Assembly: GCA_965226285.1 (NCBI GenBank)
Contig: CBDDCQ010000001.1
Coordinates: 119,916 to 183,915 of the forward strand
DNA length: 64,000 nucleotides
Source of the DNA: Ichthyobacteriaceae bacterium
GTDB taxonomy: Bacteria; Bacteroidota; Bacteroidia; Flavobacteriales; Ichthyobacteriaceae
Reading direction: 5' to 3'
Shown: piece after piece, positions 5,509-44,040 of the stretch
Layout: each line of letters starts with the position of its first letter
Numbering within the stretch: position 1 is the first letter of the stretch
Made by a program: the position numbers and the translations under genes
Notes under the pieces: generated by a model
What the model saw: the letters and a program-made list of their open reading frames with translations, nothing else
Told to the model about the DNA's origin: nothing
The model's database searches: none

Positions 5509-6029
5509 TCATGGATAATGGTTTGTTTTTTAATTGCACTACAGGTTAAGATACATATTCAAAGAAATACAGGACAAATTCACATACCCTAAGACGTCAT
5601 TAAATTAAAGTTGTTTTTATTATTAAATTATATCGACCTATTAAATCCTCTAAGAAAACTTTATTATAACCTACTTAAATATTTAAGATAAACCACTACA
5701 TTTGTAAACACCTAATGTGGTGCAAAGCAACTGCTATAATTATCTAAAAAATTGGACATTTTGTTTTGACGATTATAGTTTCTTTTAATTTCCCAAATAC
5801 TGATACCTTGAAAATCGAAAAGAGTTAATACTTCCTTATGCTCTGTAGCATATTTTGATGTAACTGTGACTCTTTTAGTTTGTCCATAAAGCTAATATAC
5901 AAGTAAAAAATATGACTGTTGATAATATTCCTTTTATAATTTCAATGCTATTAAAAGTTATTCCAGATATAATTATACAATTTTTATTTGGTATTTTTGC
6001 GCAAAATACTTAATTCTTATTTATTAAAA

Positions 6030-21725: not shown

Positions 21726-21907
21726 GTTGTAAATTGCTTTCAAAATCATATCTTTGCGGAGTATTCGCAACATAAGTAGTAGATTTTTTCAATGATAAGT
21801 TGTGAATTGCTTTCAAAATTTGTATCTTTTCAGAGTATTCGAAATCATTAATCATTATACCGTTGTAATTTGCTTTCAAAATTGTATCTTTGCAGAGTAT
21901 TCGCAAA
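21726..21907 (+). CRISPR. Degenerate 3-repeat CRISPR remnant
   Basis: Three decayed copies of the main repeat lie at 21726-21771, 21799-21845 and 21862-21907, in the same orientation. The spacers between them are 27 and 16 nt. Confidence 0.85.
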
Positions 21908-22011: not shown

Positions 22012-23265
22012 TTAATTTTCTATAATATCCAATAGGTCTTTAGCGGATATGCTATTGTCGTATTGCATTTTGTGAGGTTCTTTTGTTTGTATTTCTTTGG
22101 GTATATTTTTTAGTAGCTTATCAAACTGCTGTGAATTTAAATTCTCTACAAAAGAGGCAAATTGATCGGATTCAGGGTTGGGTTCTATAGTTTTTCTATA
22201 TATTTTGGCAATTGATTTGAGCATGTACAAATAAGGATTTAAACTGGTAGTAGTAGAAGATTTGTCGCTATCTATCCAAGATATGGCTACTTTTTCTATA
22301 CAATTCTTGCTAATTAATTCAGATTTTAATAGAAGTTCTATATCAAATGCAAATTTTGTTTCTATTATTTGTCCTTTTGTGAGTATTTCTGTTAAGATTT
22401 CTTTTTTAAATGCTTTGAAACCACATTGGGAGTCTATTATATAATTTAGGTTTGGGATTAGTTTTTTCCAGATGAATATAAACATTTTTCCCCTATCGTT
22501 TCGGTTAGCTTTCTTTATAAGCATAGATTTTTTTTCTCTACGAGAGCCTATAGCTACTAATTTATTTTTGTTTAGTATAGGATCTATCAATAATCCTATT
22601 TGACCTAAATGTGTTGAGGTATCAGCATCAGTATATATATATATTAGTATATGATTTTTATCTTTACTATTTGTAATTGCGTGCCATAAGCCATATATTA
22701 TGGATCCTCCTTTTTGGCTTTGTTTTGTGCTATGCAATCCTTTGAAAATTTCTAATTTGTTTTCTATAGCTTCTTGCAAGAAAATAACCTTAACCTTATC
22801 ATTCCAATTATTTTCTTTTATTATATCTTTAGCTATTTTACCACTATTTTCTGGGCAGCCATCATCTACCAATATTATCTCCCAACTAAAGTTAGGATTA
22901 TTTTTGAAAAGCCAGTTTATTTGATGCATTTTTTCATTTAAAAAATCTTCTCCATGTGGATGTTCTTGGCTTGTTTTTATCCTGTTATGTTCTTTGTATA
23001 AGGCAATTATTATAGGAATTTTTATGGGTTTGGGGTATTTGTTTACTATATGTTTTGATTTGGCAATTTTTATAGCAGTTAATATAAATACAAGGGAATG
23101 ATCTTTTTTATTTATCAAGTAATCTTCTATTTTTTCTATATTAGAGTAGCTTTTGTAATGATCCAATATTTTTGTTGCTATTAGAGTTATTAGGGTAGAA
23201 TGTTGTTTGCTTGTAAGGTCTATGTATTTAGGACATAGTTTTATTAGCGTATTTATATTTTCCAT
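22012..23265 (-). CDS. Family 2 glycosyltransferase, ALG5/dolichyl-phosphate glucosyltransferase-like
   Basis: Motifs ILVDDGCPENS, YTDADTST, AIGSRRE, IIDSQCGFKAF and FAFDIELL. The start is set at ATG 23265 (MENINTL), because the longer ORF to 23352 runs into the first CRISPR repeat. Confidence 0.8.
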   Translation of the reverse strand: MENINTLIKLCPKYIDLTSKQHSTLITLIATKILDHYKSYSNIEKIEDYLINKKDHSLVFILTAIKIAKSKHIVNKYPKPIKIPIIIALYKEHNRIKTSQEHPHGEDFLNEKMHQINWLFKNNPNFSWEIILVDDGCPENSGKIAKDIIKENNWNDKVKVIFLQEAIENKLEIFKGLHSTKQSQKGGSIIYGLWHAITNSKDKNHILIYIYTDADTSTHLGQIGLLIDPILNKNKLVAIGSRREKKSMLIKKANRNDRGKMFIFIWKKLIPNLNYIIDSQCGFKAFKKEILTEILTKGQIIETKFAFDIELLLKSELISKNCIEKVAISWIDSDKSSTTTSLNPYLYMLKSIAKIYRKTIEPNPESDQFASFVENLNSQQFDKLLKNIPKEIQTKEPHKMQYDNSISAKDLLDIIEN

Positions 23266-23335
23266 AAGTATTAAATATTTTTTTGATAAATTAATTATGG
23301 AGTATTGCAAATTTACAACAAAATAATTTAAATAA

Positions 23336-26300: not shown

Positions 26301-29300
26301 TAAATTGCTTCAAAATTTGTATCTTTGCGGAGTATTCGCAACCTTCATTGATTAAATAATAAAATATCTAAAGTTGTAAATTGCTTCAAAATTTGTATCT
26401 TTGCGGAGTATTCGCAACAAATTACAATAATCCTGTTCAAAAACTACGTTGTAAATTGCTTCAAAATTTGTATCTTTGCGGAGTATTCGCAACTCTTTAT
26501 AATCTAAAGGTATAGGGGGCTCAGGTTGTAAATTGCTTCAAAATTTGTATCTTTGCGGAGTATTCGCAACTTTTAGAGAAAAACACAAATGATTATGGTA
26601 GTTGTAAATTGCTTCAAAATTTGTATCTTTGCGGAGTATTCGCAACTGAGTGTGCGCTTTGTTACGAGAGTTTAGAGTTGTAAATTGCTTCAAAATTTGT
26701 ATCTTTGCGGAGTATTCGCAACATTATTCATATTTAAATATTTTTTTAATTAGTTGTAAATTGCTTCAAAATTTGTATCTTTGCGGAGTATTCGCAACTG
26801 TACCCAAGTATTGCATCAAAAGAACGAGTTGTAAATTGCTTCAAAATTTGTATCTTTGCGGAGTATTCGCAACTACCATTTATAATTGGTGAAAGGTCAT
26901 TCAGTTGTAAATTGCTTCAAAATTTGTATCTTTGCGGAGTATTCGCAACAGTAAGACTACTGCTATCACCAACCTCACTGTTGTAAATTGCTTCAAAATT
27001 TGTATCTTTGCGGAGTATTCGCAACTTGCAGAAGGAATTTAATTTTATAAACGCAGTTGTAAATTGCTTCAAAATTTGTATCTTTGCGGAGTATTCGCAA
27101 CCTTTAAGCCAATTATGATATTTATGAGAAAGTTGTAAATTGCTTCAAAATTTGTATCTTTGCGGAGTATTCGCAACTTATTAATCATCATTTTATGTCA
27201 TCATAGGGTTGTAAATTGCTTCAAAATTTGTATCTTTGCGGAGTATTCGCAACAAAAACAACAGAGAGAAGGTGGTGTTGATTGTTGTAAATTGCTTCAA
27301 AATTTGTATCTTTGCGGAGTATTCGCAACTCACTATAATGAACAGTGACACCATATTTAGTTGTAAATTGCTTCAAAATTTGTATCTTTGCGGAGTATTC
27401 GCAACATATAAGAGGCGATTTAATGTTATCGTATAGTTGTAAATTGCTTCAAAATTTGTATCTTTGCGGAGTATTCGCAACAAACAGGGATATTTGGATA
27501 TATGGTTTAGGGTTGTAAATTGCTTCAAAATTTGTATCTTTGCGGAGTATTCGCAACTGATTTTTTAAAATAAAATGACAAATGTAGTTGTAAATTGCTT
27601 CAAAATTTGTATCTTTGCGGAGTATTCGCAACAAAAATTATATGAACTTATTTTTGAAATAAGTTGTAAATTGCTTCAAAATTTGTATCTTTGCGGAGTA
27701 TTCGCAACTTTATTGATAGAAGAATAATGTACACTTTAGTTGTAAATTGCTTCAAAATTTGTATCTTTGCGGAGTATTCGCAACACAATTTTAGATATGG
27801 TGATAGAATATTAGGTTGTAAATTGCTTCAAAATTTGTATCTTTGCGGAGTATTCGCAACTAAGAAGTCAACAAATACAAGTGATTAAGGTTGTAAATTG
27901 CTTCAAAATTTGTATCTTTGCGGAGTATTCGCAACAATAATAAAAGACAACACCAAAGATACAGGTTGTAAATTGCTTCAAAATTTGTATCTTTGCGGAG
28001 TATTCGCAACCACCATTTAATAGTTTAAATTCATCTCTTAGTTGTAAATTGCTTCAAAATTTGTATCTTTGCGGAGTATTCGCAACATTTAAAATTATAA
28101 TATTGATGTAATTTAGTTGTAAATTGCTTCAAAATTTGTATCTTTGCGGAGTATTCGCAACTTATTTTACATAAGACGGTGACGCAATGCCTATAGGTTG
28201 TAAATTGCTTCAAAATTTGTATCTTTGCGGAGTATTCGCAACAATATGTTATTTCAAAATGTGGTTATCAAAAATTAGGTTGTAAATTGCTTCAAAATTT
28301 GTATCTTTGCGGAGTATTCGCAACAGAGGCAATTACATCGTTCTTAGGGACTATTTTAGTTGTAAATTGCTTCAAAATTTGTATCTTTGCGGAGTATTCG
28401 CAACATATGATAGTTCATTAGTAACTGAATCCGCCTATTAGTTGTAAATTGCTTCAAAATTTGTATCTTTGCGGAGTATTCGCAACTAATATCTTAGCAA
28501 AGATAAGATACTTGTATTGAGGTTGTAAATTGCTTCAAAATTTGTATCTTTGCGGAGTATTCGCAACAAATAAGGCTCGTAATTATCCCTTGCCTACTGT
28601 TAGTTGTAAATTGCTTCAAAATTTGTATCTTTGCGGAGTATTCGCAACATGGAAGTGGCATCATCAGTGATTAATAAAACCATTGTTGTAAATTGCTTCA
28701 AAATTTGTATCTTTGCGGAGTATTCGCAACAGGGCTTTGGAGATATAATTTAGCATAGTACAGGGTTGTAAATTGCTTCAAAATTTGTATCTTTGCGGAG
28801 TATTCGCAACTATCCGTGTAGCTTTCTTTATAGAAGCATCTTAGAGTTGTAAATTGCTTCAAAATTTGTATCTTTGCGGAGTATTCGCAACAATAACTAT
28901 GCAACAACTAGAGGAGGTCTAGCCTTTGTTGTAAATTGCTTCAAAATTTGTATCTTTGCGGAGTATTCGCAACAACTCAAGGAAATACCCAATTTAGAAA
29001 CTATAGGTACTGTTGTAAATTGCTTCAAAATTTGTATCTTTGCGGAGTATTCGCAACGTTTGCTTCAAATGAATATTTAGAAGATATGTTGTAAATTGCT
29101 TCAAAATTTGTATCTTTGCGGAGTATTCGCAACAATGAGGAAAATAAGGGGCGCGAAAAGTGTGTTGTAAATTGCTTCAAAATTTGTATCTTTGCGGAGT
29201 ATTCGCAACATCATAAGAAATAAATACAGCAGTAGATGGTTGTAAATTGCTTCAAAATTTGTATCTTTGCGGAGTATTCGCAACCCGCCTCCTCAGCAGT

Positions 29301-31871
29301 AACCCCAACCTTTGGTTGTAAATTGCTTCAAAATTTGTATCTTTGCGGAGTATTCGCAACAAAAGTATAATCACGATAAAACAGGAGAAGGTTGTAAATT
29401 GCTTCAAAATTTGTATCTTTGCGGAGTATTCGCAACTATATAAAGCACTTGAAGTAAACGATGCAGTTGTAAATTGCTTCAAAATTTGTATCTTTGCGGA
29501 GTATTCGCAACAATGAGGAGAATAAGGGGGGCGAAAAGTGTGTTGTAAATTGCTTCAAAATTTGTATCTTTGCGGAGTATTCGCAACCATGGCAATGATT
29601 ATAACTCGTTCTTGTATGTTGTAAATTGCTTCAAAATTTGTATCTTTGCGGAGTATTCGCAACATTACTCTTCAATTCGTGTTTCTCATCTATGTTGTAA
29701 ATTGCTTCAAAATTTGTATCTTTGCGGAGTATTCGCAACACGGGATTATAAAAATATCTCGTAAAATGAGTTGTAAATTGCTTCAAAATTTGTATCTTTG
29801 CGGAGTATTCGCAACTCCTAACAGTATTAATATCAGGGAATTGTAGTTGTAAATTGCTTCAAAATTTGTATCTTTGCGGAGTATTCGCAACATACTGCCC
29901 AAATTAAAAATAGTGCGGTAAGTTGTAAATTGCTTCAAAATTTGTATCTTTGCGGAGTATTCGCAACAAAAATATGTATTTAATGATGAATACGGGGTTG
30001 TAAATTGCTTCAAAATTTGTATCTTTGCGGAGTATTCGCAACGAATACCGACCGTAAATAACTATTTCATAGTTGTAAATTGCTTCAAAATTTGTATCTT
30101 TGCGGAGTATTCGCAACTGCTTGATTACGATTACTGGTTTTCTCTAAGTTGTAAATTGCTTCAAAATTTGTATCTTTGCGGAGTATTCGCAACATTATAT
30201 GACATACCAGATAAGGTAACGTGTTGTAAATTGCTTCAAAATTTGTATCTTTGCGGAGTATTCGCAACATAATCGGGCAACTTTTGGGAAACCAGTGGAA
30301 GTTGTAAATTGCTTCAAAATTTGTATCTTTGCGGAGTATTCGCAACTACTTATTTTTAACAATGCAAGCTTTTTTATGGAGTTGTAAATTGCTTCAAAAT
30401 TTGTATCTTTGCGGAGTATTCGCAACTATTAGCGACAATTTGGCAAAATTGGTATGAGTTGTAAATTGCTTCAAAATTTGTATCTTTGCGGAGTATTCGC
30501 AACCTTCCTATAGATATATTCTTGAGTAACATGATGTTGTAAATTGCTTCAAAATTTGTATCTTTGCGGAGTATTCGCAACTTATATGTTAAATTTCAGG
30601 ACAAATATGAAGTTGTAAATTGCTTCAAAATTTGTATCTTTGCGGAGTATTCGCAACACGTTGAGTAAAATATATAAGTATGAGAAGTTGTAAATTGCTT
30701 CAAAATTTGTATCTTTGCGGAGTATTCGCAACTAAAGAGGACTGCAAATTAATTATAGGAAGTTGTAAATTGCTTCAAAATTTGTATCTTTGCGGAGTAT
30801 TCGCAACGAGCAGGAGCAGGAGCAGGAGCAGGAGGAGGTTGTAAATTGCTTCAAAATTTGTATCTTTGCGGAGTATTCGCAACAAGATGATTTTAAAATA
30901 GATAAACCAATAGGTTGTAAATTGCTTCAAAATTTGTATCTTTGCGGAGTATTCGCAACGAAGATACTATAATTACCATTTTGCTTGTTGAAGTTGTAAA
31001 TTGCTTCAAAATTTGTATCTTTGCGGAGTATTCGCAACTTGAATGAATTGAAGGATGGTCGTAAAGGGGTTGTAAATTGCTTCAAAATTTGTATCTTTGC
31101 GGAGTATTCGCAACAGATTGGATATTTAGGGTCCCCATTTTCAAGTTGTAAATTGCTTCAAAATTTGTATCTTTGCGGAGTATTCGCAACTAATGTTTTT
31201 TTTATTTACATGGGTCCATGGTTGTAAATTGCTTCAAAATTTGTATCTTTGCGGAGTATTCGCAACTGTACCTATTACTTTGATAAACTATTAATAGTTG
31301 TAAATTGCTTCAAAATTTGTATCTTTGCGGAGTATTCGCAACCATTATTATTAACGCTTTCAATAGTTTACAGTTGTAAATTGCTTCAAAATTTGTATCT
31401 TTGCGGAGTATTCGCAACTATTTAAGTTATAAGATGTTAATACTTTAGTTGTAAATTGCTTCAAAATTTGTATCTTTGCGGAGTATTCGCAACTTATCAT
31501 TTCTCGTCTTTGGATGTTATGAGTTGTAAATTGCTTCAAAATTTGTATCTTTGCGGAGTATTCGCAACTATATATCTTATATATAGGTACAGGGAGGGTT
31601 GTAAATTGCTTCAAAATTTGTATCTTTGCGGAGTATTCGCAACGAAGAAACCCCTAAACTACACCAATACTAGTTGTAAATTGCTTCAAAATTTGTATCT
31701 TTGCGGAGTATTCGCAACAAAGAGGGAAGTAGCAATCTTAACTGAAAGGGTTGTAAATTGCTTCAAAATTTGTATCTTTGCGGAGTATTCGCAACAAAAC
31801 TAAATCAACAGTAGTTTTACGGGAGGTTGTAAATTGCTTCAAAATTTGTATCTTTGCGGAGTATTCGCAAC
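23336..31871 (+). CRISPR. Type II-C CRISPR array, 112 repeats / 111 spacers
   Basis: The 46-nt repeat is GTTGTAAATTGCTTCAAAATTTGTATCTTTGCGGAGTATTCGCAAC. The hand count was checked arithmetically: 112 x 46 plus the summed spacers equals 8536 nt. Spacers are 28-38 nt with a mode of 30. The plus-strand sense is inferred from tracrRNA complementarity. Confidence 0.98.
23337..23366 (+). promoter_or_regulatory. Repeat-embedded promoter motif (example in repeat 1; present in every canonical repeat)
   Basis: Repeat positions 2-4 are TTG, followed by exactly 19 nt, then positions 24-31 TAtcTTTG. This matches the Bacteroidetes -33/-7 consensus. Confidence 0.45.
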
Positions 31872-31931
31872 AGATAGTGGTTTAAGTTTTTGATATTCAA
31901 TAGTTTAAAACTTGAATTACAATTATAGAAA

Positions 31932-31956
31932 ACAGCCTTTAAAGGCTGTTTTTTTA
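31932..31956. terminator. Hairpin terminator between the array and cas2
   Basis: ACAGCCTTT/AAAGGCTGT stem followed by a T7 run on the plus strand. A shorter T run follows on the minus strand, so it may act in both directions. Confidence 0.65.
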
Positions 31957-31970
31957 TTTAATTATTCCTT

Positions 31971-32327
<357 letters not shown>

Positions 32328-33215
32328 TTATATAAATTTTGGATATAGGATTTTTCTAGATACTCCTTTAAAGCATTCATACAGTGAATTTGTAGTTCTA
32401 CTAGAGGCTATCATCAGTGGACTCTGTTTATTTCCGATCATAACATCCATGGTAATAATTTGTAATAGATGTTTTTTATGTTCTATAGTAAGTTCTTCAT
32501 AATTTTGATTATCTACAAAATCACAAACCAATCTATCTACAAATGGACGGTAGGGTTCCATAATATCATCAGCTAAGCAATAGGCATTATATTTATTTTT
32601 ATGAAATATTCCCAATGTAGGAAGTAAACCACTACTCACTAAAGAACGAGCAATTAAAGCTCTAAGTATAGCATATCCATAGTTGAGTAAGCCATTGGGC
32701 ATTTCTTCATTTGGTCCTCTTATAAATTCCATTTTAAAGATTTGCTTCCAATAGTAAACAGCTGATCTGGCTTCTTGATTCTTAGGATCTCCACTGGTAA
32801 TTCTCTCTGCCCAATACAGCATATTGTCGTGAGGAATACCTCTTTGTTTTAGAAGTTCTGCTTGGTTTTTAATTTTTGCTACTACAGTTTGTTTCCATAA
32901 ATTTTTTTTAAGGGTTTTAGTAGCAGAGATTTGATATTTGAATCTTTCACTTTGTTCAGTATGCGCATCTAATGGCATAAGTAATCCAATAGGATGGTGA
33001 CTTGCGTCACAATTGATAAGGGCTACATTGTTTTGAGTGATTTTTTCTAATAGTTTATTGGTAATGGTAATTTGAGGATGTTCTAAAACAATAAAACCAA
33101 TATCTTCTATGGGGACTTGTTTTTTGACTCCATCATTGGGATAGTTTACTACTAATTGCTCATTTTGGGTACTCAAGTAAGCAGGGTTACCAAAAAATAA
33201 AGTCTTTTTTACCAT
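32328..33215 (-). CDS. cas1: CRISPR-associated endonuclease Cas1 (type II)
   Basis: 295 aa with typical type II Cas1 segments: LNYGYAILRA, LPTLGIFHKNKYNAYCLADDIMEPYRP. Confidence 0.96.
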   Translation of the reverse strand: MVKKTLFFGNPAYLSTQNEQLVVNYPNDGVKKQVPIEDIGFIVLEHPQITITNKLLEKITQNNVALINCDASHHPIGLLMPLDAHTEQSERFKYQISATKTLKKNLWKQTVVAKIKNQAELLKQRGIPHDNMLYWAERITSGDPKNQEARSAVYYWKQIFKMEFIRGPNEEMPNGLLNYGYAILRALIARSLVSSGLLPTLGIFHKNKYNAYCLADDIMEPYRPFVDRLVCDFVDNQNYEELTIEHKKHLLQIITMDVMIGNKQSPLMIASSRTTNSLYECFKGVSRKILYPKFI

Positions 33216-33276
33216 CTCTTTTTACTATGTTTTAGAGGCAAGTTCTTAGATAAAGATACAATATGATAAATACTAA

Positions 33277-36200
33277 TCAAACTTTTGATGACTCAGAGTA
33301 TTTCACATTTTTGTGATGGTTGTTTACTTCTACAATTTTTCCTAATCGGTTTATCCGTACCTTTATTGCTTTAGTTAAAGGATGTTTATCTTTGTTTTTT
33401 ATATTAGGCAGACTCTTTACTACATAATAACAAATTCCTTTTAAATCTTCATTAGTATGATGGTTTTTTCCACTAACTACTCTTTCTCTATCTACATTAG
33501 TTTCTAAGTGGCTTCTAAAATAGTAATCCTTAGAACTAATTTTTTGCACTCTAAATAAATGTTTGCTGATTTCTTGAAAATTATTAGGATCCGTAAGGTC
33601 AATCTCTTGGGGATTAAATTCATCGTTACCAAATATAAAATAGTCATTCTGAGCTATACTAAATAAAAACTTCCAACCCTTATCTCGATTTTTTATTTTA
33701 TCAATAATAGGTAAACCTTGTTTTTTTCTTTCTACAGTTTCCCAAAAACTTACTACTTCCTCCTGCCAATTTCCTTTTTCATCTTCATAAATTGCTATAT
33801 GTTGATTATTACGTGTTTGTACAAAGTCAGTCTGAATGATTTCTCCTTTGGTATTTTTCCTTTTGATAGGCTTGGCAGATGTAATTCCTGTTATAGAAAC
33901 TTTTTTAATTTGAATATTTTTTTCTTTGTTTAGGTAAATAGGGTTTTCTTCTAAGTTAGAGAGTGCTTTTTTCTTATCTCCATTGTACTGTTCAATTCTA
34001 TTTTGGAGGATTTTTTGGATGCCTTTATCTATTATTTTTTCAATCTTAAGGTCTGGTTTAACTTCTTTTCTAATGGTATAGATTTCTTTAAAAGTTACTA
34101 ATTTTACTTTTTCAGGAAGTGTCTTACCATTACAATCAAGGACAGGATTTTTAGTAAAGCTATTTTTACCCGAAAAGGCTTTTTTAAAGTTATTATTAAA
34201 TTCTTGTAATCTATTTATAAGGGCATTTTTATGCTTAAAGTTGGCTACAGAATTTATTTTATGTAAATCGAGTGTAGCATCTATTTTTTTTTGTTTAGTT
34301 TGATATCGTTTTATTTTTCTATACAAAGTATCTTTGTGTAAGGGACCTCTTGGAGTCAATACTACCTGTTTCTTAAACTTATTTTTATCTTTAATTTTAA
34401 TTTTATTAATATTTTTGGTTGCTGTTTTATTTTTAGCTTTAAATGATATTAACATATTTTCTAAAACTGATTTAGCTTCTCCTCTAAAATTTGGGAAGGG
34501 CTTCTTAAATCTTAGTTTATTTTTATGGTCTCGGTAAAGTTCTTTTTGTTCTATACCATAAATGCTACTAGTTTTGTTACTTTTGGCTTTCAAGTTATTT
34601 AAGTATTGTATATGGCTAGGTTTTGTAAATGCTACAATGAGTGCGTCCATAGCATGGTGTCTGTGGTCGTCTCGTTTTGCCCAGCCTTTTATTTTGTAAA
34701 TAGTATCTCCTTTTTCTCCTTTTTCAGTATTGGTAAGTCCTATCCTTTCATACTTGTCAAAATTAATTTCTTTCATAATATCTATCAATCCCCAGTCTTC
34801 TCTTAATCTATCAGTAACTTTTCCAGTAGTTGTATGCACTTTTTTACAAATATTACCTAATATTTGAATGGTTTTTTTAGCTATATACTGTGAATCTCTT
34901 AAGTCTCGTTCTATAAAATCTTCAGGTATTTCAGAAGATTTCATTCGTAATTTACTTCGTTTGGTTTTACTTATCAACTCTTTTTTATAAAATTCGTCAA
35001 CCCTATCTTTATACTGTTCAAACTCTGTTTCATTGTATTTATCTTTGAGAAAATCATAGGCAGTTTGGTCACTTTTATGCTGGTTTAATTTTCTTTCACA
35101 GAGTATTTTGTTAGAAAAAGAATCATCAAACAATTTTGCTGTAGGTATAATATGGTCAATATTGTATTTATTGGTAAATAGAGCGGATACTTTTATGGGT
35201 TTTCCTGTATAAATGGATATTCCTTTAGTCTCTTCCCAAAGTTTATAGCGAATAATATCATTTCGTGTAACCTTTTCAATCTTATATTCACTTTGTAATT
35301 TTTTTCTTATTTCTTCATTTTTTTTAGTAGCATCTCTAATATGAGCGATCATCTTTTTCCTATCTTCTTTACTCTGTTTAAGTTCTCTCGCAAGTTCTAC
35401 TCTTATTTCATCGGGCTTTCCGTATGTTTTTATAATTTCATTTACAGTGTTGATAGTTTGATTTAAGATTTTTTCTATTACAGGGGTTCTAAGCGCATTC
35501 TTGGGTAGTAAATCTAAAGTGTCTTTTATAGGTTTACTTTGTATTTGTTTTTTATTGAGCACGTGAGAATGATTGTATCCTGCTAATTGACATGCCTTAT
35601 CGTATGGGTATCCCTCTTTTAGATGAGGCAAAATTTTTCTAATAGCTCTAGCACTGAGATTCCCATAATCAGAATCTAACCTTATTTGAGTGAGTATTTT
35701 ACCATGAGATTTTTTAAATCCAAATTTTTCGTGAAGTTTTTGGATTAACTTTTCATTGTTTTCAATAGAATAAATGAGATGCCATAATTGAAAATAAGAT
35801 TGTTTATCAAAATCATTACCCCTTAGGTTACTATCAAAGTTTAAAACATCAGTATTGATATCTAAACTTTTAAATATTTTTGTTATAGTGTTTCTAATCT
35901 CATCAGCACTCATAGAGAAATCAAACTCATAGCCTTCTACATTTGAAATAGCTTGAAAAGCCTGATATAATAAATAATTTGTATGGTTTCCTTCTAAGTC
36001 TTCAAAGTTCAATTTCCAATTTCTCAGGTTGTATCCTAAAATTTTGAATATCTCTCTTTTAGAAAGACGGAATTTTAAATTGGCATGTTCAAAGAGAACT
36101 TGTTTAAGTTCCAAATCTAATTTTAGTTCTGTTTTATCTTTAACATTAGTAAAGGTGAGATCATTAATATTTTGCCAAATTTTAAATTCTTGAAATAGAG

Positions 36201-37566
36201 GAGAAGATTTGGAACATGCTTTATGGTGCTTTTCAAATTGACAGTCTGAAATAAGATGCTTACATGATTTTAAAGGTCTTTGATAAAAAATGATAGTATC
36301 TTTAATTTCTTTTTCTAATTTAGAATCTAGTTCATGATAGTGTTTCTTCTGTTCTTGCCAAATGGCATCGAATTCATTGATATAATCTTTTCGGTAGAAT
36401 ATTTGATTTCTTAGATTGGTATGTGGATTGCGTTCTATTTGTTCATATAAGTATTGCCCTATAGTTTTACCCTTAAAATGCAATTTTTTACTTCTATCAC
36501 TGATGATGCCTAAGTATTTACTCGCTTGATTGATTTGGCTATTAATTTCTATTAAAATGTAAGCTACTTGTGTAATGTCAAGTTGTTTGTTTAAAGCATC
36601 TGTACGGTAACTGTACTGTTGCAATTGTTTTTCATCACTTTTTCCTTTGGGTTCTGCAATATATTTTGTAGGTAAAATAATGTTTAGGCTGTTCTTAAAG
36701 AATTTCTCTATTTCATTTAATCTTACTTGTTGATTCTCAAAATAAGTTTCTTTGGCTTTGGCGGTTAAAATTTTGGGGTATTTATCTTTTAATTCCTCCC
36801 ATTTTTGAAGAGCGTTATTTTTAAATTCTTGTACAAAAATAGACCTAAAAGCACTCGCAGTTTGTGTCCTATTTAATCCGTATAAGTCTTTTTTGAGTTT
36901 ATCGGTCAATATATTGGGATAAAACTCTTGTTGAAAATCGAATATAATATCAAATTCCCTTTGCAGATCAGATTTATAAAATACAGGAACTTCATAAGTT
37001 TTCTTTTCTTTTTTTCGTTCCTGTATCTTTTGTAATACATATTGTCCTATGGTTATATTTTGATCTTTTAATATTTTAGCAATTTCAATATTATCTATAG
37101 CTTGTCCTAAATCTTCGGAATTATCTTTCTTTCTATTACTTTTATATCCTCGTTTCTTGTTAATTGAAAGTAGTACTCTTACAAAATCTACCTTAGATAA
37201 TTGCTCATTGGGGGCTTTAGCACGAAGTTTTAGTAATTGATGAGTAGTTTTTTTTCCTTCTTCTCTAAGTATGTGATCGTTATTTATAAAACCTATCTTT
37301 TTAAAGGTATTTATAATACGTTGCCTTCTTAATTTGTAACGGAAATTATTTCTTCTTGAACTTCTTTTTAAAGTTCTTTCAGCATTGATGGTAATGCTAT
37401 TGCCTTTTTCAAAGTTATTCTTTTCATCAATAGTAAGAGACACTACTCTTACACCACCATCAATAATTTTAGAATTTTCTCTATTTTCATGCTCTTCTAC
37501 AACTGACCATCCAATAGTAGTTGTTCCCAAATCTAATCCGAGTATTTTTTTATGCACACTATCCAT
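33277..37566 (-). CDS. cas9: Type II-C Cas9 (cas9-1, intact)
   Basis: 1429 aa. RuvC-I ILGLDLGTTTIGWSVV, RuvC-II IRVELARE, HNH YNIDHIIP...NKILCERKLNQHKSDQ, RuvC-III HHAMDALIVAF. No csn2 or cas4 is present in the locus. Confidence 0.97.
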   Translation of the reverse strand: MDSVHKKILGLDLGTTTIGWSVVEEHENRENSKIIDGGVRVVSLTIDEKNNFEKGNSITINAERTLKRSSRRNNFRYKLRRQRIINTFKKIGFINNDHILREEGKKTTHQLLKLRAKAPNEQLSKVDFVRVLLSINKKRGYKSNRKKDNSEDLGQAIDNIEIAKILKDQNITIGQYVLQKIQERKKEKKTYEVPVFYKSDLQREFDIIFDFQQEFYPNILTDKLKKDLYGLNRTQTASAFRSIFVQEFKNNALQKWEELKDKYPKILTAKAKETYFENQQVRLNEIEKFFKNSLNIILPTKYIAEPKGKSDEKQLQQYSYRTDALNKQLDITQVAYILIEINSQINQASKYLGIISDRSKKLHFKGKTIGQYLYEQIERNPHTNLRNQIFYRKDYINEFDAIWQEQKKHYHELDSKLEKEIKDTIIFYQRPLKSCKHLISDCQFEKHHKACSKSSPLFQEFKIWQNINDLTFTNVKDKTELKLDLELKQVLFEHANLKFRLSKREIFKILGYNLRNWKLNFEDLEGNHTNYLLYQAFQAISNVEGYEFDFSMSADEIRNTITKIFKSLDINTDVLNFDSNLRGNDFDKQSYFQLWHLIYSIENNEKLIQKLHEKFGFKKSHGKILTQIRLDSDYGNLSARAIRKILPHLKEGYPYDKACQLAGYNHSHVLNKKQIQSKPIKDTLDLLPKNALRTPVIEKILNQTINTVNEIIKTYGKPDEIRVELARELKQSKEDRKKMIAHIRDATKKNEEIRKKLQSEYKIEKVTRNDIIRYKLWEETKGISIYTGKPIKVSALFTNKYNIDHIIPTAKLFDDSFSNKILCERKLNQHKSDQTAYDFLKDKYNETEFEQYKDRVDEFYKKELISKTKRSKLRMKSSEIPEDFIERDLRDSQYIAKKTIQILGNICKKVHTTTGKVTDRLREDWGLIDIMKEINFDKYERIGLTNTEKGEKGDTIYKIKGWAKRDDHRHHAMDALIVAFTKPSHIQYLNNLKAKSNKTSSIYGIEQKELYRDHKNKLRFKKPFPNFRGEAKSVLENMLISFKAKNKTATKNINKIKIKDKNKFKKQVVLTPRGPLHKDTLYRKIKRYQTKQKKIDATLDLHKINSVANFKHKNALINRLQEFNNNFKKAFSGKNSFTKNPVLDCNGKTLPEKVKLVTFKEIYTIRKEVKPDLKIEKIIDKGIQKILQNRIEQYNGDKKKALSNLEENPIYLNKEKNIQIKKVSITGITSAKPIKRKNTKGEIIQTDFVQTRNNQHIAIYEDEKGNWQEEVVSFWETVERKKQGLPIIDKIKNRDKGWKFLFSIAQNDYFIFGNDEFNPQEIDLTDPNNFQEISKHLFRVQKISSKDYYFRSHLETNVDRERVVSGKNHHTNEDLKGICYYVVKSLPNIKNKDKHPLTKAIKVRINRLGKIVEVNNHHKNVKYSESSKV

Positions 37567-37579
37567 ATTATAGCAAAAT

Positions 37580-37666
37580 AATAAAAAAGCGACAAATGAA
37601 ATTTGCCGCTTTCAAATGTTTTCACAACGGAATAATCCTTATTGTGAATTGCTTCAAAATTTCAAC
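37580..37666 (-). ncRNA. tracrRNA copy A
   Basis: The minus-strand RNA is UUGAAAUUUUGAAGCAAUUCACAAUAAGGAUUAUUCCGUUGUG...GCGGCAAAUUUCAUUUGUCGCUUUUUU. Its 22-nt anti-repeat is complementary to repeat positions 1-22 (one mismatch, one GU pair). It has a nexus-like hairpin and a terminator hairpin plus U6. A -7 box TAtaTTTG lies at 37670-37677. Confidence 0.85.
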
Positions 37667-37716
37667 TTGCAAATATAGATTTATTTTTTCTTTTTTCGTG
37701 TTTTTTTTTCTTTTTT

Positions 37717-37822
37717 CAATAATTTCAGAATTTTCTCTATTTTCATGCTCTTCTACAACTGACCATCCAATAGTAGTTGTTCCCAAATCCAATCCGAGTA
37801 TTTTTTTATGCACACTATCCAT
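37717..37822 (-). pseudogene. Orphan cas9 N-terminal fragment (first ~35 codons)
   Basis: It encodes MDSVHKKILGLDLGTTTIGWSVVEEHENRENS, identical to the cas9-1 N-terminus, then runs into upstream-flank sequence. Confidence 0.9.
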
Positions 37823-37839
37823 ATTATAATAGCAAAATA

Positions 37840-37917
37840 ATAAAAAAGCGACAAATTTGCCGCTTTAAATGTTTTCACAACGGAATAATCCTTATTGTGA
37901 ATTGCTTCAAAATTTCA
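37840..37917 (-). ncRNA. tracrRNA copy B
   Basis: Same anti-repeat and nexus as copy A. The terminator loop is shortened (GCGGCAAAUUUGUCGC plus a U run). A -7 box lies at 37922-37929. Confidence 0.8.
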
Positions 37918-38196
37918 ATTGCAAATATAGATTTATTTTTTCTTTTTTCGTGTTTTTTGTTTCTTTTTTTAAGCCAATGTATCGTTTCTGTGCGGTGTTG
38001 AGCTTGGCAACATTGCAAATACGTTAATCCGTTTTGCCAGCCTCATTGCAAAAAAAGCATGTAATTCAATGTTTACGGGCGATCATAGTGTTTTTAGAAT
38101 ATTTTTTTTAGTATCTCTCATGCAAGTTCTATTAAAAATGAAACAGTTGATAGGGTAATTTTAGGAACTATCCCAATACTCATTTTATATCTCATA

Positions 38197-38231
38197 TTGG
38201 ATAATAGATACAGTAAATTAGAAACAATTAT
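38197..38231 (+). pseudogene. Fragment of cyoE (matches 43257-43291) at the duplication junction
   Basis: TTGGATAATAGATACAGTAAATTAGAAACAATTAT versus cyoE TTTGGGAATAGATACAGTAGATTGGAAACAATTAT. Hand alignment gives 30 of 35 identical. Confidence 0.6.
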
Positions 38232-41200
38232 TCATACTTATGCACATTTTTGTGAGGGTTGTTTACTTTTACAATTTTTCCTAATTGGTTTATCCGTACC
38301 TTTATTGCTTTATTTAAAAGATGTTTATCTTTGTTTTTTGTATTAGGCAGGCTCTGAATTCTATACTTACAAATTCTTTCTAAATCTCTATTTACAGTAG
38401 TTTCTAAATGGTTTCTAAACCTGTAATCGTTAGAACTAATACTTTGCACTCTAAATAAATGTCTGCTGATTTCTTGAAAATTATTAGGATCCGTAAAGTC
38501 AATATCTTGAGGATTAAATTCATCGCTACCAAATATAAAATAGTCATTAATGAGCCATACTAAATAAAAACTTCCAATCCTTATCCCGATTTTTTATTTT
38601 ATCAATAATAGGTAACCCTTGTTTTTTTCTTTCTACAGCTTCCCAAAAACTTACTACGTCTTCTTGCCAATTTCCTTTTTCATCTTCATAAATTGCTATA
38701 TGGTGATTATTACCTGTTTGTACAAAGTCAGTATGAGTAATTTCTCCTTTGGTATTTTTCCTTTCGATAGACTCGGCAGATGTAATTCCTGTTATAGAAA
38801 CTCTTTTAATTTGAATATTTTTTTCTTCGTTTAGGTAAATAGGGTTTTCTTCTAAGTTAGAGAGTGCTTTTTTCTTATCTCCATTGTATTGTTTAATTCT
38901 ATTTTGGAGGATTTTTTGGATGCCCTCATCTACTATTTTTTCAATATTAAGTTTTGGGTTAACTTCTTTTCTAATGGTATAGATTTCTTTAGAAGTTACT
39001 AATTTTTCAGGAAGTTTCTTACCATCATCATCGAGAATACGATTTTTAGTAAGGTTCTTTTTAGAAAAGGCTTTTTTAGGTTCATTATTAAATTCTTGTA
39101 ATCTCTTTTTAAGGGCATTTTTATGCTTAACGTTGGCTATAGAATTTATTTTATCTAAATTGAGTTTATCATCTATTTTTAGTTTTTTAAAAATTACTAA
39201 TTTTTCAGGAAGTTTCTTACCATTACCATCGAGGATAGGATTTTTAGTAAGGTTATCTTCAGAAAAGGCTTTTTTAGGTTCATTATTAAATTCTTGTAAT
39301 CTCTTTTTAAGGGCATTTTTATGTTTATCGTTGGTTATAGAATTTATTTTATCTAAATTGAGTTTATCATCTATTTTTAGTTTTTTAGTTTCATATTGTT
39401 TTATTTTTCCATATAAAGTTTCTTCGTGTAAGGGACCTCTTGGAGTCAATACTACTTGTTTCTTAAACGTATTTTTACCAAACTCATCTTTACATTTAAT
39501 TTTATTAGTATTTCTGGTTACTGTTTTATTTTTAGCTTTAAATGATATTAAAATTTTTTCTAAAAATAATTTAGCTTCTCTTCTAAAATTTGGGATGGGC
39601 TTCTTAAATATTAGTTTCTTTTTTTTAGTGTCCCAGTAAAGTTCTTTTTGTTGTATACCATAGATGATACTATTTTTGTCACTTTTGGCATTCAAATTAT
39701 TTAAGTATTGTATATAACTATGTTTTGTAAATGCTACAGTGAGTGCGTCCATAGCATGGTGTCTGTGGTCGTTTCGTTTTGTCCAGTCTTTTATTTTGTA
39801 AAGAGTATCTCCATGTTTTCCTTTTTCAGTATAAGTAAGTCCTAACCTTTCATACTTGTCAAAATTAATTTCTCTCATAATATCTTCCAATCCCCAGTCT
39901 TTTCTTAATCTATTAGTAACTTTTCCAGTAGTTGTATGCACTATTTTACAAATATCACCTAATATTTGAGTAGTTTTTTTAGCTATATATTGTGAATTTC
40001 TTAAGTCTCGTTCTAAAAAATCTTTAGGTATTTCAGAAGATTCCCTTAGCAAGTTCTCTTTTTTGGTTTCACTTATCAACTCTTTTTTATAAAATTCTTC
40101 AACCCTATTTAAATACTCTTTAAACTCTGTTTCATTGTATTTATCTTTGAGAAAATCATGGGCAGTTTGGTTACTTTTATCTTGGTTTAATTTGCTTTCA
40201 CAGAGTGTTTTGTTAGAAAAAGAATCATCAAACAATTTTGACTTAGGTATAATATGTTCAATATGGTATTTATTGGTAAATAGATCGCATCGTTTTATGA
40301 GTTTTCCTGTATAAATGGATATTCCTTTAGTCTCTTCCCAAAGTTTATCACGAATCTCATCATTTCTTGTAACCCTTTCAATCTTATATTCACTTTGTAA
40401 TTTTTTTCTTATTTCTTCGTTTTTGTTAGTAGCATCTTTAATATGCTGGGTCGTTTTTTCCCTTTCTTCTTTACTCTGTTTAAGTTCTCTCGCAAGTTCT
40501 ACTCTTATTTCATCGGGCTTTCCGTATGTTTTTATAATTTCGTTTACAGTGTTGATAGTTTGATTTAAGATTTTTTCTACTACGGGGTTTCTAAGCGCAT
40601 TCTTGCGTAGTAAATCTAAAGTGTCTTTTGTAGGTTTATTTTCTATTTGTTTTTTATTGAGCGCGTGAGAGTGATTGTATCCTGCTAATTCACATGCCTT
40701 ACTGTATGGGTGTCCCTCTTTTAGATGAGGTAAAATTTTTCTAATAGCTCTAGCACTAAGCTTTCCATAATCAGACTCTAACCTTATTATTTGAGCGAGT
40801 ATTTTACCATGAGGTTTTTTAAATCCAAATTTTTCGTGAAGTTTTTGGACTAACGTTTCATCGTTTTCAACAGAATAAATGAGATGCCATAATTGAAAAT
40901 AAGGTTGTTTATCAAAATCATTCCCCGCTAAGTTACTATCAAAGTTTAAAACATCAGTATTAATATCTAAACTTTTAAATACAGTGTTTATTTCTGTTCT
41001 AATCTCAGCAGCACGCCTTTTAGAAAAATCCAATTCCCATTCTCCTTTTTTTAAAATATAAAAATCAAACTCATGGTCTTCTTCTTTTAAAATAGCTTGA
41101 AAAGCATGACATAATGAATGATTTGTACGGTTTCCTTCTAAGCCTTTATCTTTATCTTTAAGTTTCAATTCCCAATCTTTTGGGTTGTATCCTAAAATTT

Positions 41201-42704
41201 TGAATATCTCTTTTTTAGAAAGACGGGATTTTAAATTAGCATGTTCAAAGAGATCTTGTTTACGTTCCAAATCTAATTTTAGTTCGCTTTTATCTTTAAC
41301 ATTAGTAAAGGTAAGATCATTAATATTTTGCCAAATTCTAAATTCTTGAAATAGAGGAGAAGATTTGGGACATGCTTTATGGTGCTTTTCAAATTCACAA
41401 GATGAAATAAGATGCTTACAAGATTTTAAAGGTCTTTGATAAAAAATGATAGTATCTTTAATTTCTTTTTCTAATTTAGAATCTAGTTCATGATAGTGTT
41501 TCTTCTGTTCTTGCCAAATGGCATCGAATTCCTTGATATAATCTTTTCGGTAGAATACTTGATTTCTTAGATTGGTATGTGGATTGCGTTCTATTTGTTC
41601 ATATAAGTATTGCCCTACAGTTTTATCCTCAAGATGCAATTTTTTACTTCTATCACTGATGACACCTAAGTGTTTACTAACTTTATTGATTTGGTTATTA
41701 ATTTCTATTAAAATGTAAGCTACTTGTGTAATGTCAAGTTGTCTGTTTAAAGCATCTGCACGGTAAGTGTACTGTTGCAATTGTTTTTCATCACTTTTTC
41801 CTTTGGGTTCTGCAATATATTTTGTAGGTAAAACAACGTTTAGCTTGCTGTTAAAGAATTTTTCTATTTCCTCTAGTTTTATTTTTGGATTCTCAAAATA
41901 AGTTTCTTTGGCTTTGGCGGTTAAAATTTGGGGGTATTTATCTTCTAATTCCTCCCATTTTTGAAGAGCGTTATTTTTAAATTCTTTTACAAAAATAGAC
42001 TTAAAAACGTTCGCAGTTTTTTTCTTATTTAATCCGTCTAATTCTTTTTTGAGTTTATCGGTCAATATATCGGGATAAAACTCTTGTTGAAAATCGAATA
42101 TACTATCAAATTCCTTTTGCAAATCAGATTTATAAAATGCAGGAACTTCGTATATTTTCTTTTCTTTTTTTCGTTCCTGTATCTTTTGTAATACATATTG
42201 TCCTACGGTTATATTTTGATCGTTTAATATTTTAGCAATTTCAATACCATCAACAGCTTGTCCTAAATCTTCAGAACTCTTTTCTTTTCTATTACTTTTA
42301 TATCCTCGTTTCTTGTTAATTAAAAGTAGTACTCTTACAAAATCTACCTTAGATAATTGCTCATTGGGGGCTTTAGCACGAAGTTTTAGTAATTGATGCT
42401 TAATATTCTCTACTTGTATGTAGTCGTTATTTATAAAACCTATCTTTTTAAAGGTATTTATAATACGTTGCCTTCTTAATTTGTAACGGAAATTACTTCT
42501 TCTTGCACCTCTTTTTAAAGTTCTGTCAGCATTGGTGGTAATGCTCTTGCCTTTTTCAACGTTATCCTTTTCATCAGTAGTAAGAGGCACCACTCTCACA
42601 CCACAATCAATAATTTTAGAATTTTCTTCATTTTCATCTTCTTGCACCAAAGCCCAACCGATACTATTTGTTCCCAAATCTAATCCAAGTATTTTTTTAT
42701 GCAT
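38228..42704 (-). pseudogene. cas9: Second cas9 paralog (cas9-2), frame-shifted near the 3' end
   Basis: The 1385-aa ORF (38547-42704) is collinear with cas9-1. The remaining 106 codons of the C-terminal domain continue in another frame (38228-38548). RuvC and HNH motifs are present (ILGLDLGTNSIGWALV, YHIEHIIP, HHAMDALTVAF). Confidence 0.85.
38996..39391. repeat. In-frame 198-bp tandem duplication inside cas9-2
   Basis: 38996-39193 and 39194-39391 are near-identical. They encode two copies of KLKIDDKLNLDKINSI.N.KHKNALKKRLQEFNNEPKKAFS..NLTKN.ILD..GKKLPEKLV. cas9-1 has one copy. Confidence 0.9.
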
Positions 42705-42731
42705 ACGATATAAGAGTTATTAGTTAAAATA

Positions 42732-42825
42732 ATAAAAAAGCGACAAACGCCATTTGCCTGACATTTGCCGCTTTAAAATGTTTTCACAACGGAATAATCC
42801 TTATTGTGAATTGCTTCAAAATATT
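42732..42825 (-). ncRNA. tracrRNA copy C (upstream of cas9-2)
   Basis: The anti-repeat ATTGTGAATTGCTTCAAAAT (plus sense) is identical over 20 nt and diverges after that. The terminator stem carries an insertion (GCGGCAAAUGUCAGGCAAAUGGCGUUUGUCGC plus U6). A -7 box lies at 42830-42837. Confidence 0.75.
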
Positions 42826-43085
42826 AATGCAAATATAGATTTATTTTTTCTTTTTTCGTGTTTTTTTATTTTTTTTTTAGCCAGTTGTATCATTTCTGTG
42901 CAGTGTTGAGCTTGGCAACATTGCAAAAAAAGCCTGTAAGTCAATGTTTACGGGCGATCATAGTATTTTTAGAATATTTTATCTTTCGTATCTCTCATGC
43001 AAGTTCTATTTAAAAATGAAACAGTTGAGAGGGTAATTTTAGAAACTATGCTCATGTATTCGTTTTATATTTCAGAAGTATTATT

Positions 43086-43093
43086 TATCTTTG
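43086..43093 (+). promoter_or_regulatory. Candidate -7 box for the cyoE/cox operon
   Basis: TAtcTTTG lies 42 nt upstream of ATG 43135. Confidence 0.35.
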
Positions 43094-43134
43094 CCACTTG
43101 AAAAAATTAAAGATATTCTTTTTATTCTGATGAT

Positions 43135-44040
43135 ATGAAATGCAAAAATATAGTGAAACAGGATACATCTTTTAAAACCATGCTTTTAGATCTTAAACAA
43201 ATTACAAAATTTGGATTGACTATAAGTGTTGTATTTTCAGCTTTGATAGGTTACCTTTTGGGAATAGATACAGTAGATTGGAAACAATTATGCACACTTG
43301 TAATAGGAGGTTATTTGATGGTAGGGTCATCTAATACCTTCAATCAAGTAATAGAAAGGGATAGAGATAAGGTAATGAAACGAACTAAAAACAGACCTAT
43401 TCCCGCAGGAAGAATGTCTGTAAATACAGGACTTATGATTGGTTTTTTATGTGCTACACTTGGGCTGTATTTGCTTTATTTGATCAATGTTAAAACTTTC
43501 ACGTTGGGCTTTATTTCCATGCTTATATATGTATTGGCATATACCCCTTTGAAAACTAAAACGCCTCTTTCAGTACTTGTGGGAGCATTTCCTGGTGCTA
43601 TTCCTTTTGCATTGGGTTGGGTTGCAGCTACAGATAGATTTGATGAAGTTGGCTTATTTCTTTTTCTCTTTCAGTTTTTATGGCAATTCCCCCATTTTTG
43701 GGCAATTGCTTGGTTGCTCGATGAAGATTATAAAAAGGCAGGGTTTAAACTTTTGCCTACAGGAAAAAAAGATAATATTGCCGCTTTGCAAATATTTTTA
43801 TATACCTTGATTATGATCCCAGTATCACTGTTTCCTGCATCAGGTTTACTAAAAGGATTAAATTTATCTGGTGTTTCTGGAATATTGGTGTTTTCACTGG
43901 GCTTATATATATTGTATTATGCTATAAAAATGATTAAGGAAAAGACTAATGCTACTGCAAAAAAAATGATGCTCATGGCAGTAATATATTTGCCTTTAGT
44001 ACAATTGGTATATATTATTGATAAAGTTTTTAACAGATAA
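43135..44040 (+). CDS. cyoE: Protoheme IX farnesyltransferase (heme O synthase)
   Basis: 301 aa, a polytopic UbiA-family protein. Motifs NQVIERDRDKVMKRTKNRPIP and FLWQFPHFWAIAW. Confidence 0.93.
   Translation: MKCKNIVKQDTSFKTMLLDLKQITKFGLTISVVFSALIGYLLGIDTVDWKQLCTLVIGGYLMVGSSNTFNQVIERDRDKVMKRTKNRPIPAGRMSVNTGLMIGFLCATLGLYLLYLINVKTFTLGFISMLIYVLAYTPLKTKTPLSVLVGAFPGAIPFALGWVAATDRFDEVGLFLFLFQFLWQFPHFWAIAWLLDEDYKKAGFKLLPTGKKDNIAALQIFLYTLIMIPVSLFPASGLLKGLNLSGVSGILVFSLGLYILYYAIKMIKEKTNATAKKMMLMAVIYLPLVQLVYIIDKVFNR

Follow-up and report, generated by a model that had tools for sequence, protein, structure and literature searches.

Three predicted tracrRNA genes, two of them in a 256-bp tandem repeat with the start of cas9, in a type II-C CRISPR locus of an Ichthyobacteriaceae bacterium

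The stretch of DNA analysed here, referred to as the window, comprises 64,000 nucleotides (nt) from an Ichthyobacteriaceae bacterium (assembly GCA_965226285.1, contig CBDDCQ010000001.1, positions 119,916 to 183,915) and contains a type II-C CRISPR (clustered regularly interspaced short palindromic repeat) locus, in which cas9, cas1, cas2, and the repeat array are arranged with no other gene between them and with neither csn2 nor cas4. The window is chromosomal, with rpoN, comEC, recG, bamA, hutH, and hutU also present, and has a G+C content of 33%. Three predicted genes for the trans-activating CRISPR RNA (tracrRNA), designated A, B, and C, lie within the cas9-cas1-cas2 locus; A and B occupy two head-to-tail units of 256 bp that each carry a cas9 start, and C precedes a second cas9 gene. 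These elements are located as follows.

37460-37715, minus strand: unit A, with a -7 box, tracrRNA A, and the true cas9-1 start
37579-37664, minus strand: tracrRNA A, with the -7 box at 37677-37670, the anti-repeat at about 37662-37641, and the nexus at 37640-37628
37613-37585, minus strand: terminator of tracrRNA A, a 13-bp hairpin followed by a T-run (loop probe sequence UUUCAUUU)
37716-37971, minus strand: unit B, which has a -7 box, tracrRNA B, and an orphan 5' fragment of cas9
37839-37916, minus strand: tracrRNA B, with the -7 box TATATTTG at 37929-37922 and the anti-repeat at about 37916-37894
37866-37845, minus strand: terminator of tracrRNA B, a 9-bp hairpin followed by a T-run (loop probe at the AAAUUUG junction)
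37622-37822, minus strand: orphan open reading frame (ORF) of 66 amino acids, whose frame starts at 37822 in unit B and stops at 37622
about 42731-42826, minus strand: tracrRNA C, upstream of cas9-2, with the -7 box at 42837-42830 and the anti-repeat at about 42824-42803
42774-42737, minus strand: terminator of tracrRNA C, a 16-bp hairpin (loop probe sequence GUCAGGCAAAUGG)

The assignment of A, B, and C as tracrRNA genes, which a preliminary description of this DNA had proposed, is secure at the sequence level, being borne out by anti-repeats, promoter boxes, terminators, and a shared core. When the window is scanned with the first 21 nt of the array repeat, allowing at most 3 mismatches, the only matches are 112 array repeats and the three tracrRNA sites, at 37642-37662 and 37895-37915 (1 mismatch each) and at 42804-42824 (2 mismatches), against a chance expectation of 0.02, and a single-chain repeat-GAAA-tracrRNA construct folds with a repeat:anti-repeat duplex of 13-15 bp. 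Judged by motif, each gene would have its own promoter and intrinsic terminator: a TAnnTTTG box (TATATTTG, of the Bacteroidetes -7 type) stands 7-8 nt before the anti-repeat in A and B and 5 nt before it in C, and a terminator scan of 6 kb returns only three minus-strand predictions, which are the three tracrRNA hairpins. The genes end about 13 nt (A) and 27 nt (C) before the start codons of cas9-1 and cas9-2, respectively. Moreover, the 35-nt core GCAATTCACAATAAGGATTATTCCGTTGTGAAAAC, part of the Cas9-binding scaffold, is the same as within the tracrRNA of Fp2Cas9 from Flavobacterium psychrophilum and recurs exactly in at least 120 metagenome contigs, 104 of which, among those listed, have a cas9 start beside it. 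A cmscan of positions 28000-44000 against Rfam (E <= 1) gave no tracrRNA family match, only sub-threshold CRISPR-DR50 matches on the array and one chance RNAI match; this negative says little, because the Rfam tracrRNA model covers Streptococcus-type tracrRNAs.

The three copies are the same from UUUUGAAGC through GUGAAAACAUUU, and the 46-nt stretch UUUUGAAGCAAUUCACAAUAAGGAUUAUUCCGUUGUGAAAACAUUU, which contains the core, shows no difference among them. The differences lie around it. The bases from box to anti-repeat read CAAGTTGAAA in A, CAATTGAAA in B, and CATTAATA in C, the linker differs by one base (AUUUGAAAG, AUUUAAAG, and AUUUUAAAG, in the same order), and the spacer to the start codon also varies. 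Copy C departs at the distal end of the anti-repeat (TTAATATTTTG versus GTTGAAATTTTG) and carries, as first described, an insertion in its terminator stem, which is 16 nt long and lengthens the hairpin to 16 bp, and a 5-nt deletion leaves B with 9 bp compared with the 13 bp of A. In silico folding of each copy, an experiment suggested in the preliminary description, yields a nexus and a terminator hairpin in all three, the hairpin of B being the weakest (-10.7 kcal/mol). Among 101 distinct tails from the core-sharing loci listed, the hairpin has a median of 10 pairs (interquartile range 8-12, full range 0-17); therefore, A, B, and C all fall within natural variation, with B on its weak side and C near its strong end. 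A, B, and C thus look interchangeable as far as their sequences go, and a dosage effect of the extra copy is possible. The idea that B is a decayed copy was considered and is not supported, as all its elements are intact and its hairpin lies inside the family range.

The tandem arrangement of A and B, nested so that each unit takes in a tracrRNA and a cas9 start, is recovered both by a repeat search and by MAFFT alignment, at the coordinates first reported, and the 256-bp repeat is absent from the output of Tandem Repeats Finder for the window. The pairwise alignment of the two head-to-tail units comprises 244 matches, 5 mismatches, and 5 gap events over 14 nt, so that 244 of the 249 aligned bases are the same. 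The repeat search gives start-to-start spacings of 256, 253, and 252 nt, the first two of which are the two unit halves, and it finds a third copy of the unit sequence about 4.9 kb upstream. On the minus strand, each unit runs from an A-rich stretch through the TATATTTG box, the anti-repeat AAATTTTGAAGCAATTCACAAT, the nexus AAGGATTATTCCG, the linker, a G+C-rich hairpin, and T6 to ATGGATAGTGTGCATAAAAAAATACTCGGATT... and the first ~35 cas9 codons, the cas9 start reading ATGGATAGTGTGCAT... in each. As two head-to-tail copies with one novel junction, the units constitute a tandem segmental duplication. The junction of B with A reads ...AAATTATTGA|AAAAAGAAAAAAAAACACG (beginning AAAAAG...), is spanned by the sequence TTATTGAAAAAAG, and looks illegitimate. 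An orphan cas9 fragment is indeed present in the second unit, as had been noted, but it is in fact part of a 66-amino acid ORF that encodes 32 N-terminal residues of Cas9 and then reads on over the promoter and anti-repeat of tracrRNA A; an exact look-up of its product found no gene with an exact match on record. In the 64 kb of the window, the only two-copy tandem duplications are the 256-bp repeat and a 198-bp one inside cas9-2, and both lie in, or at the edge of, a block that varies between strains.

The remaining features of the locus are the following.

33277-37566, minus strand: cas9-1, encoding 1429 amino acids, intact and with its catalytic motifs present (TIGR01865, 537 bits)
38547-42704, minus strand: cas9-2 (ATG at 42704), an ORF of 1385 amino acids shortened by a +1 insertion near 38553
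38243-38548, minus strand: the part of cas9-2 left out of frame, comprising its last ~115 codons, with 70% identity to the C-terminus of Cas9-1 (tblastn)
38988-39387, minus strand: in-frame 198-bp tandem duplication in cas9-2, with copies 93-94% identical
42880-43054, minus strand: U, the intergenic segment between ubiA and tracrRNA C
37972-38176, minus strand: U', a second version of U that lies past the end of cas9-2 and before unit B
43135 onward, plus strand: ubiA, divergent from tracrRNA C
32328-33215, minus strand: cas1 (PF01867)
31971-32324, minus strand: cas2 (PF09827)
23336-31871, plus strand: the single CRISPR array, with 111 identical 46-nt repeats GTTGTAAATTGCTTCAAAATTTGTATCTTTGCGGAGTATTCGCAAC

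Segment U' is 88-95% identical to positions 42919-43049 (repeat families D11, D15, and D16); a small protein gene in U and U' was considered and rejected, as no ORF is conserved between both copies. Translation of cas9-1 may actually begin at the GTG at 37557, in which case its N-terminus would read MHKKILGLDLG, like that of cas9-2. Cas9-2 and Cas9-1 share 76-80% protein identity and their genes about 91% DNA identity. The frame of cas9-2 is disrupted compared with intact homologues, as in a pseudogene, by one additional C near 38553, although a sequencing error is possible; deleting one C restores a frame of 1491 amino acids. Of the 9 coding indels between the two genes, 8 are in frame, and the catalytic motifs are intact in Cas9-1, in Cas9-2, and in the Cas9 encoded in the corresponding position of a sister strain (see below); therefore, taken together with the frameshift, cas9-2 looks to have been kept open for most of its history and disrupted lately. 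The Nei-Gojobori ratio of nonsynonymous to synonymous substitution rates (dN/dS) for the pair is 0.96, an estimate (NG86) that may be biased in A+T-rich DNA, and changes at columns conserved in 60 homologues number 36 versus 29 between both copies, those of cas9-2 being more radical. Biased mutagenesis of the kind caused by diversity-generating retroelements, considered as a cause of a ratio near 1, was rejected since the spectrum is symmetrical and ordinary (225 transitions and 187 transversions). Apart from the genes of the window itself, a homologue search of 5.8 billion proteins yielded none of 51-76% identity, and the donor of cas9-2 is thus not in the database.

The window holds one array with one repeat type. 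As each repeat has TATCTTTG on the plus strand, the CRISPR RNAs (crRNAs) are predicted to be read on that strand, and the tracrRNAs, which must pair with them, on the minus strand. At repeat position 6, the 111 live units all carry an A, which produces an A.C mismatch in pairing with A, B, and C alike. Past the old end of the array, at 21726-21906, there are three degenerate repeats of 47 nt, one of which begins with GTTGTGAATTGC, the perfect complement of the anti-repeat; the ~1.4 kb between these repeats and the array contains a minus-strand ORF of 446 amino acids (22012-23352) with no NCBIfam match. Elsewhere in the window, three very large ORFs (2254-5508, 51182-54607, and 54987-58550) are built of tandem coding repeats of ~156, 294-300, and 69 nt and probably encode repeat-rich surface proteins unrelated to the tracrRNA genes.

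A sister strain is represented by a metagenome contig of 57 kb, here L005 (ENA ERZ25073751, ~5x coverage). Exact look-ups of Cas1 and of Cas9-1 gave a single match each, both in L005, whose Cas9-1 protein is identical to that of the window; a scan of species-representative genomes with Cas9-1 found only relatives of 35-45% identity and no close strain. Up to position 42610 of the window, the upstream flank of L005 shares 99.5% identity with it; from unit A onward the identity is 99-100%, in U' it is about 95%, and the arrays are largely colinear. L005 has one 256-bp unit only and no unit B, and its upstream slot (2712-7316) contains an intact cas9 of 1534 amino acids that is ~45-50% identical to either cas9 of the window. 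Therefore, the two genotypes differ by one block, from 42610 to 37716, that contains the cas9-2 body, U', and unit B. TracrRNA C and the first 34 codons of the cas9 in this second slot are the same in both strains, so the swap junction falls at about codon 34 of cas9. Compared with the single unit of L005, unit A differs by a 3-nt TAT deletion and by one extra A in the upstream poly-A run, and unit B by 2 substitutions and 3 indels. This asymmetry fits the arrival of B with a diverged block, or its origin before the strains split, and fits less well a very recent duplication in place. In unit A, the 3-nt deletion also creates a TTGTCG-17-TATAAT sequence with a TG extension before the cas9-1 ATG (37567-37595, minus strand), which matches the sigma-70 consensus at 10 of 12 positions and is probably irrelevant in a Bacteroidota host. 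Within the L005 array, fifteen repeats at ~16300-17440 are inverted and several spacers are 1-5 edits off those of the window, which could reflect either noise in the consensus of a 5x assembly or a true inversion.

The wider set of relatives consists of the metagenome contigs that share the exact 35-nt core. In all 104 listed relatives with the cas9 start in reach, the tracrRNA and cas9 genes are divergent and in none are they co-directional; the same divergent order is found in the nearest Cas9 relatives (51% identity) and, where the core was found, in the genome-bin relatives of 35-45% identity. Among the loci listed, none of 120 has a second copy of the core (at most 6 substitutions) and none of 120 has two cas9 N-termini. 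The arrangement had been called unusual from the outset, and this comparison agrees: the co-directional, abutting order and the duplication of the module are, judged from these sequences, specific to the lineage of the window. With the tracrRNA terminator ending ~13 nt ahead of the cas9-1 ATG and no TAnnTTTG box in the interval, cas9 may depend on read-through for its transcription. Two other features were observed in the relatives. A palindrome, TACGG-N4-CCGTA, keeps a fixed distance (52-60 nt) on the upstream side of the core in 9 of 115 listed loci (L007, L010, L011, L052, L064, L066, L085, L106, and L122) and is absent from the window; these loci hold 9 of its 12 occurrences in ~1 Mb, and it could be an operator within the intergenic region of cas9 and tracrRNA. 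Furthermore, at least 6 of 108 listed loci (L022, L023, L085, L090, L100, and L122) have, after the first terminator and ~85-95 nt downstream of the core, a second tail of the form AAAACATTyAAgg, hairpin, and T-run, which is preceded by an inverted AAATGTTTC(A/G)(C/T)GAA in L022, L085, L090, and L122, by a variant of it in L023, and by none in L100. These second tails look as though the 3' tail of the tracrRNA had been duplicated in part, with no anti-repeat included.

Among the known type II-C systems, those of Neisseria meningitidis and Campylobacter jejuni have a minimal cas9-cas1-cas2 operon and an array that opposes the operon and has promoters inside its repeats; unlike the window, they use sigma-70-type -10 boxes and 36-nt repeats and have a single tracrRNA elsewhere in the locus. 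Likewise, the array described here opposes the cas operon, with TATCTTTG in every repeat on the plus strand. Type II loci may also encode additional regulatory RNAs related to tracrRNA, such as the long-form tracrRNA of Streptococcus pyogenes and the scaRNA of Francisella novicida, which steer Cas9 to a promoter by means of additional 5' sequence or a different pairing partner. No such feature was found here: B closely copies A, and neither spacers nor guide-like sequences matched the locus beyond chance; a self-targeting spacer that would cut at codon 35 of cas9, and so account for the coincident junctions described below, was likewise rejected, the only spacer matches to the locus being chance ones of 16-21 nt.

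The closest described counterpart is the II-C locus of F. psychrophilum (Fp1Cas9/Fp2Cas9), which likewise has long repeats of the GUUGUGAAUUGCUUUCAAAAU form with promoters inside them and whose Cas9 P0023 is 49% identical to Cas9-1 and belongs to the same family. The 99-nt tracrRNA of Fp2Cas9 supports DNA cleavage in vitro (PMC12609912, Table S2), its essential region is nt 25-64 (PMC12609912), and, beyond the shared core, its tail is near-identical to that found here (AUUUAAAGCGGCC...GGUCGCUUUUUU); the differences among A, B, and C fall outside the essential region. In contrast with the window, which has two tandem cas9 modules, three tracrRNA genes, and tracrRNA genes that are co-directional with cas9 and abut it, each locus of F. 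psychrophilum is described as having a single cas9 and a single tracrRNA (PMC10309648, PMC12609912). Replacement of the cas9 allele between strains by homologous recombination is known in its conserved II-C locus (PMC10309648). The repeats of the Bacteroidetes long-repeat Cas9 subgroup are ~46-48 nt long (Chylinski et al. 2013, PMC3737331), which the 46-nt repeat of the window fits, whereas its co-directional genes differ from the divergent ones of the relatives; the rule of divergent orientation is our own observation on these relatives and not a published definition. More than one anti-repeat per locus has precedents: the type II-A locus of Lactobacillus gasseri has two (PMC3737331) and some loci allow several tracrRNA "solutions" (Dooley et al., bioRxiv 10.1101/2020.09.02.279885), which the authors of both studies read as duplication or second acquisition. 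There, the copies are not identical and occupy separate sites, one upstream of cas9 and another between cas9 and cas1; a head-to-tail repeat that includes a cas9 start, or pairing with a second cas9, is described for none of them. Tandem tracrRNA-cas9 modules on one array and a head-to-tail tracrRNA repeat are undescribed in the literature searched, the coverage of which is incomplete.

Taken together, unit B is probably a by-product that recombination left at the margin of the 4.9-kb block, which was swapped or imported, and would still yield an interchangeable tracrRNA. Specifically, an older tandem duplication of ~4.9 kb, comprising U, tracrRNA, and cas9, would have given rise to copies C and A together with cas9-2 and cas9-1, respectively, and the one array would be fed by both modules. 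Unit A would be the resident, working tracrRNA gene for the intact cas9-1, while unit B, with a tracrRNA and the first 34-35 cas9 codons, would be a strain-specific extra copy at the right-hand edge of the block (42610-37716), left by the recombination that shaped or imported it. A duplication of the cas9 5' end carries the tracrRNA along because the latter lies directly upstream on the same strand and ends ~13 nt before the ATG. Since the promoter box, the invariant Cas9-binding core, the hairpin, and the U-tract are kept, B probably encodes a functional tracrRNA; what B would contribute is redundancy or a modestly higher dose of tracrRNA. The anatomy of the sequence, its homologies, and the difference between the strains are observed directly, and from them we infer the expression of the copies, their equivalence, and the order of events.

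Some points weigh against this account or leave it room to change. TracrRNA B could be silent. On the other side, B retains every functional element and its single-base linker deletion restores the family-typical AUUUAAAG, which could reflect selection instead of neutrality. Unit B may have been gained in the lineage of the window or lost in L005, and the strain comparison consists of two genotypes only, one of which has ~5x coverage and array patches that resemble consensus noise. Lastly, in module C, the identity between the window and L005 ends after ...TCTAAAATTAT and the junction of B with A follows ...GAAATTATTGA, so that both fall within 3 nt of one cas9 position, a coincidence that a pure by-product explains only loosely. 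The swap junction might simply be the end of the conserved homology of tracrRNA and cas9 5' sequence. Alternatively, the tandem junction might have used the microhomology ATTGA, since L005 has CATTGACTT at the boundary of U' and the poly-A stretch, although the fit is imperfect because CTT is absent from the junction, or a single event might have moved the cas9-2 body, U', and unit B together.

A broader reading, which is put forward tentatively, takes the tracrRNA together with the first 34 cas9 codons as a portable homology arm by which strains of this lineage could stack or swap whole cas9 genes in the upstream "second slot", while one array, one cas1-cas2 pair, and a universal guide scaffold are retained. 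The same ~110 spacers would then serve two nucleases, which probably differ in their preferences for the protospacer adjacent motif (PAM). Unit B would remain from such an exchange, and the near-neutral dN/dS of the paralogs would be a sign of diversification driven, for example, by anti-CRISPR or PAM-escape pressure.

It is unlikely, by comparison, that the repeat is a selected dosage or regulatory design, in which two serial promoters raise the level of tracrRNA and, by read-through past the weak terminator of B and then that of A, also the transcription of cas9-1, which is assumed to lack its own promoter. The absence of a TAnnTTTG box from the interval between tracrRNA terminator and cas9 ATG, which may make cas9 reliant on read-through from the promoter of the tracrRNA, agrees with such a design, as do the weakness of the B hairpin and the integrity of all functional elements of B. 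Nevertheless, L005, with an identical Cas9-1 and a largely shared array, does without B, the junction looks illegitimate and the orphan ORF enters tracrRNA A, and no such tandem occurs among the 120 relatives listed. Less credible still is an assembly artefact, namely a repeat generated from mis-joined strain variants or a chimeric read: the window comes from a metagenome-type assembly, the related long contig L005 has a single unit, and the paralogous modules A and C hinder the polishing of the region, but the units differ by 5 mismatches and 5 indels, some of them outside homopolymers, an assembler outputs a junction only if the reads contain it, 256 bp is far below the length of long reads, and L005 truly differs, with another gene as its slot-2 cas9. 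Moreover, as the 198-bp duplication in cas9-2 is the only other one in 64 kb, the assembly does not make tandems widely. Lastly, paralog-specific tracrRNAs, diverged so that each is tied to a particular Cas9, had been raised as a possibility in the preliminary description, and two cas9 genes and copies that differ in distal anti-repeat and terminator length speak for them. They are highly improbable, because the stretch UUUUGAAGCAAUUCACAAUAAGGAUUAUUCCGUUGUGAAAACAUUU that the copies share covers the part essential for Fp2Cas9 in vitro (PMC12609912), the core is invariant across listed loci whose Cas9 proteins reach only 45-51% identity to Cas9-1, two strains with downstream Cas9 proteins of only ~45% identity have the same tracrRNA C, cas9-2 is frameshifted, and there is one array with one repeat type.

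Provided that the copies are equivalent, the 256-bp repeat matters little and is no more than a small scar. The surrounding locus tells more: it offers a natural example in which one array is shared by two Cas9 genes, each with its own tracrRNA, and its upstream Cas9 is almost wholly different between two otherwise near-identical strains. The presence of one 35-nt guide core in all the family members listed, together with the swapped upstream Cas9, suggests that the Cas9 genes of this group can be exchanged without re-tuning their RNAs. Such exchangeability bears on the evolution of PAM specificity and of resistance to anti-CRISPRs and, in practical terms, points to orthologues that would accept one single-guide RNA scaffold.

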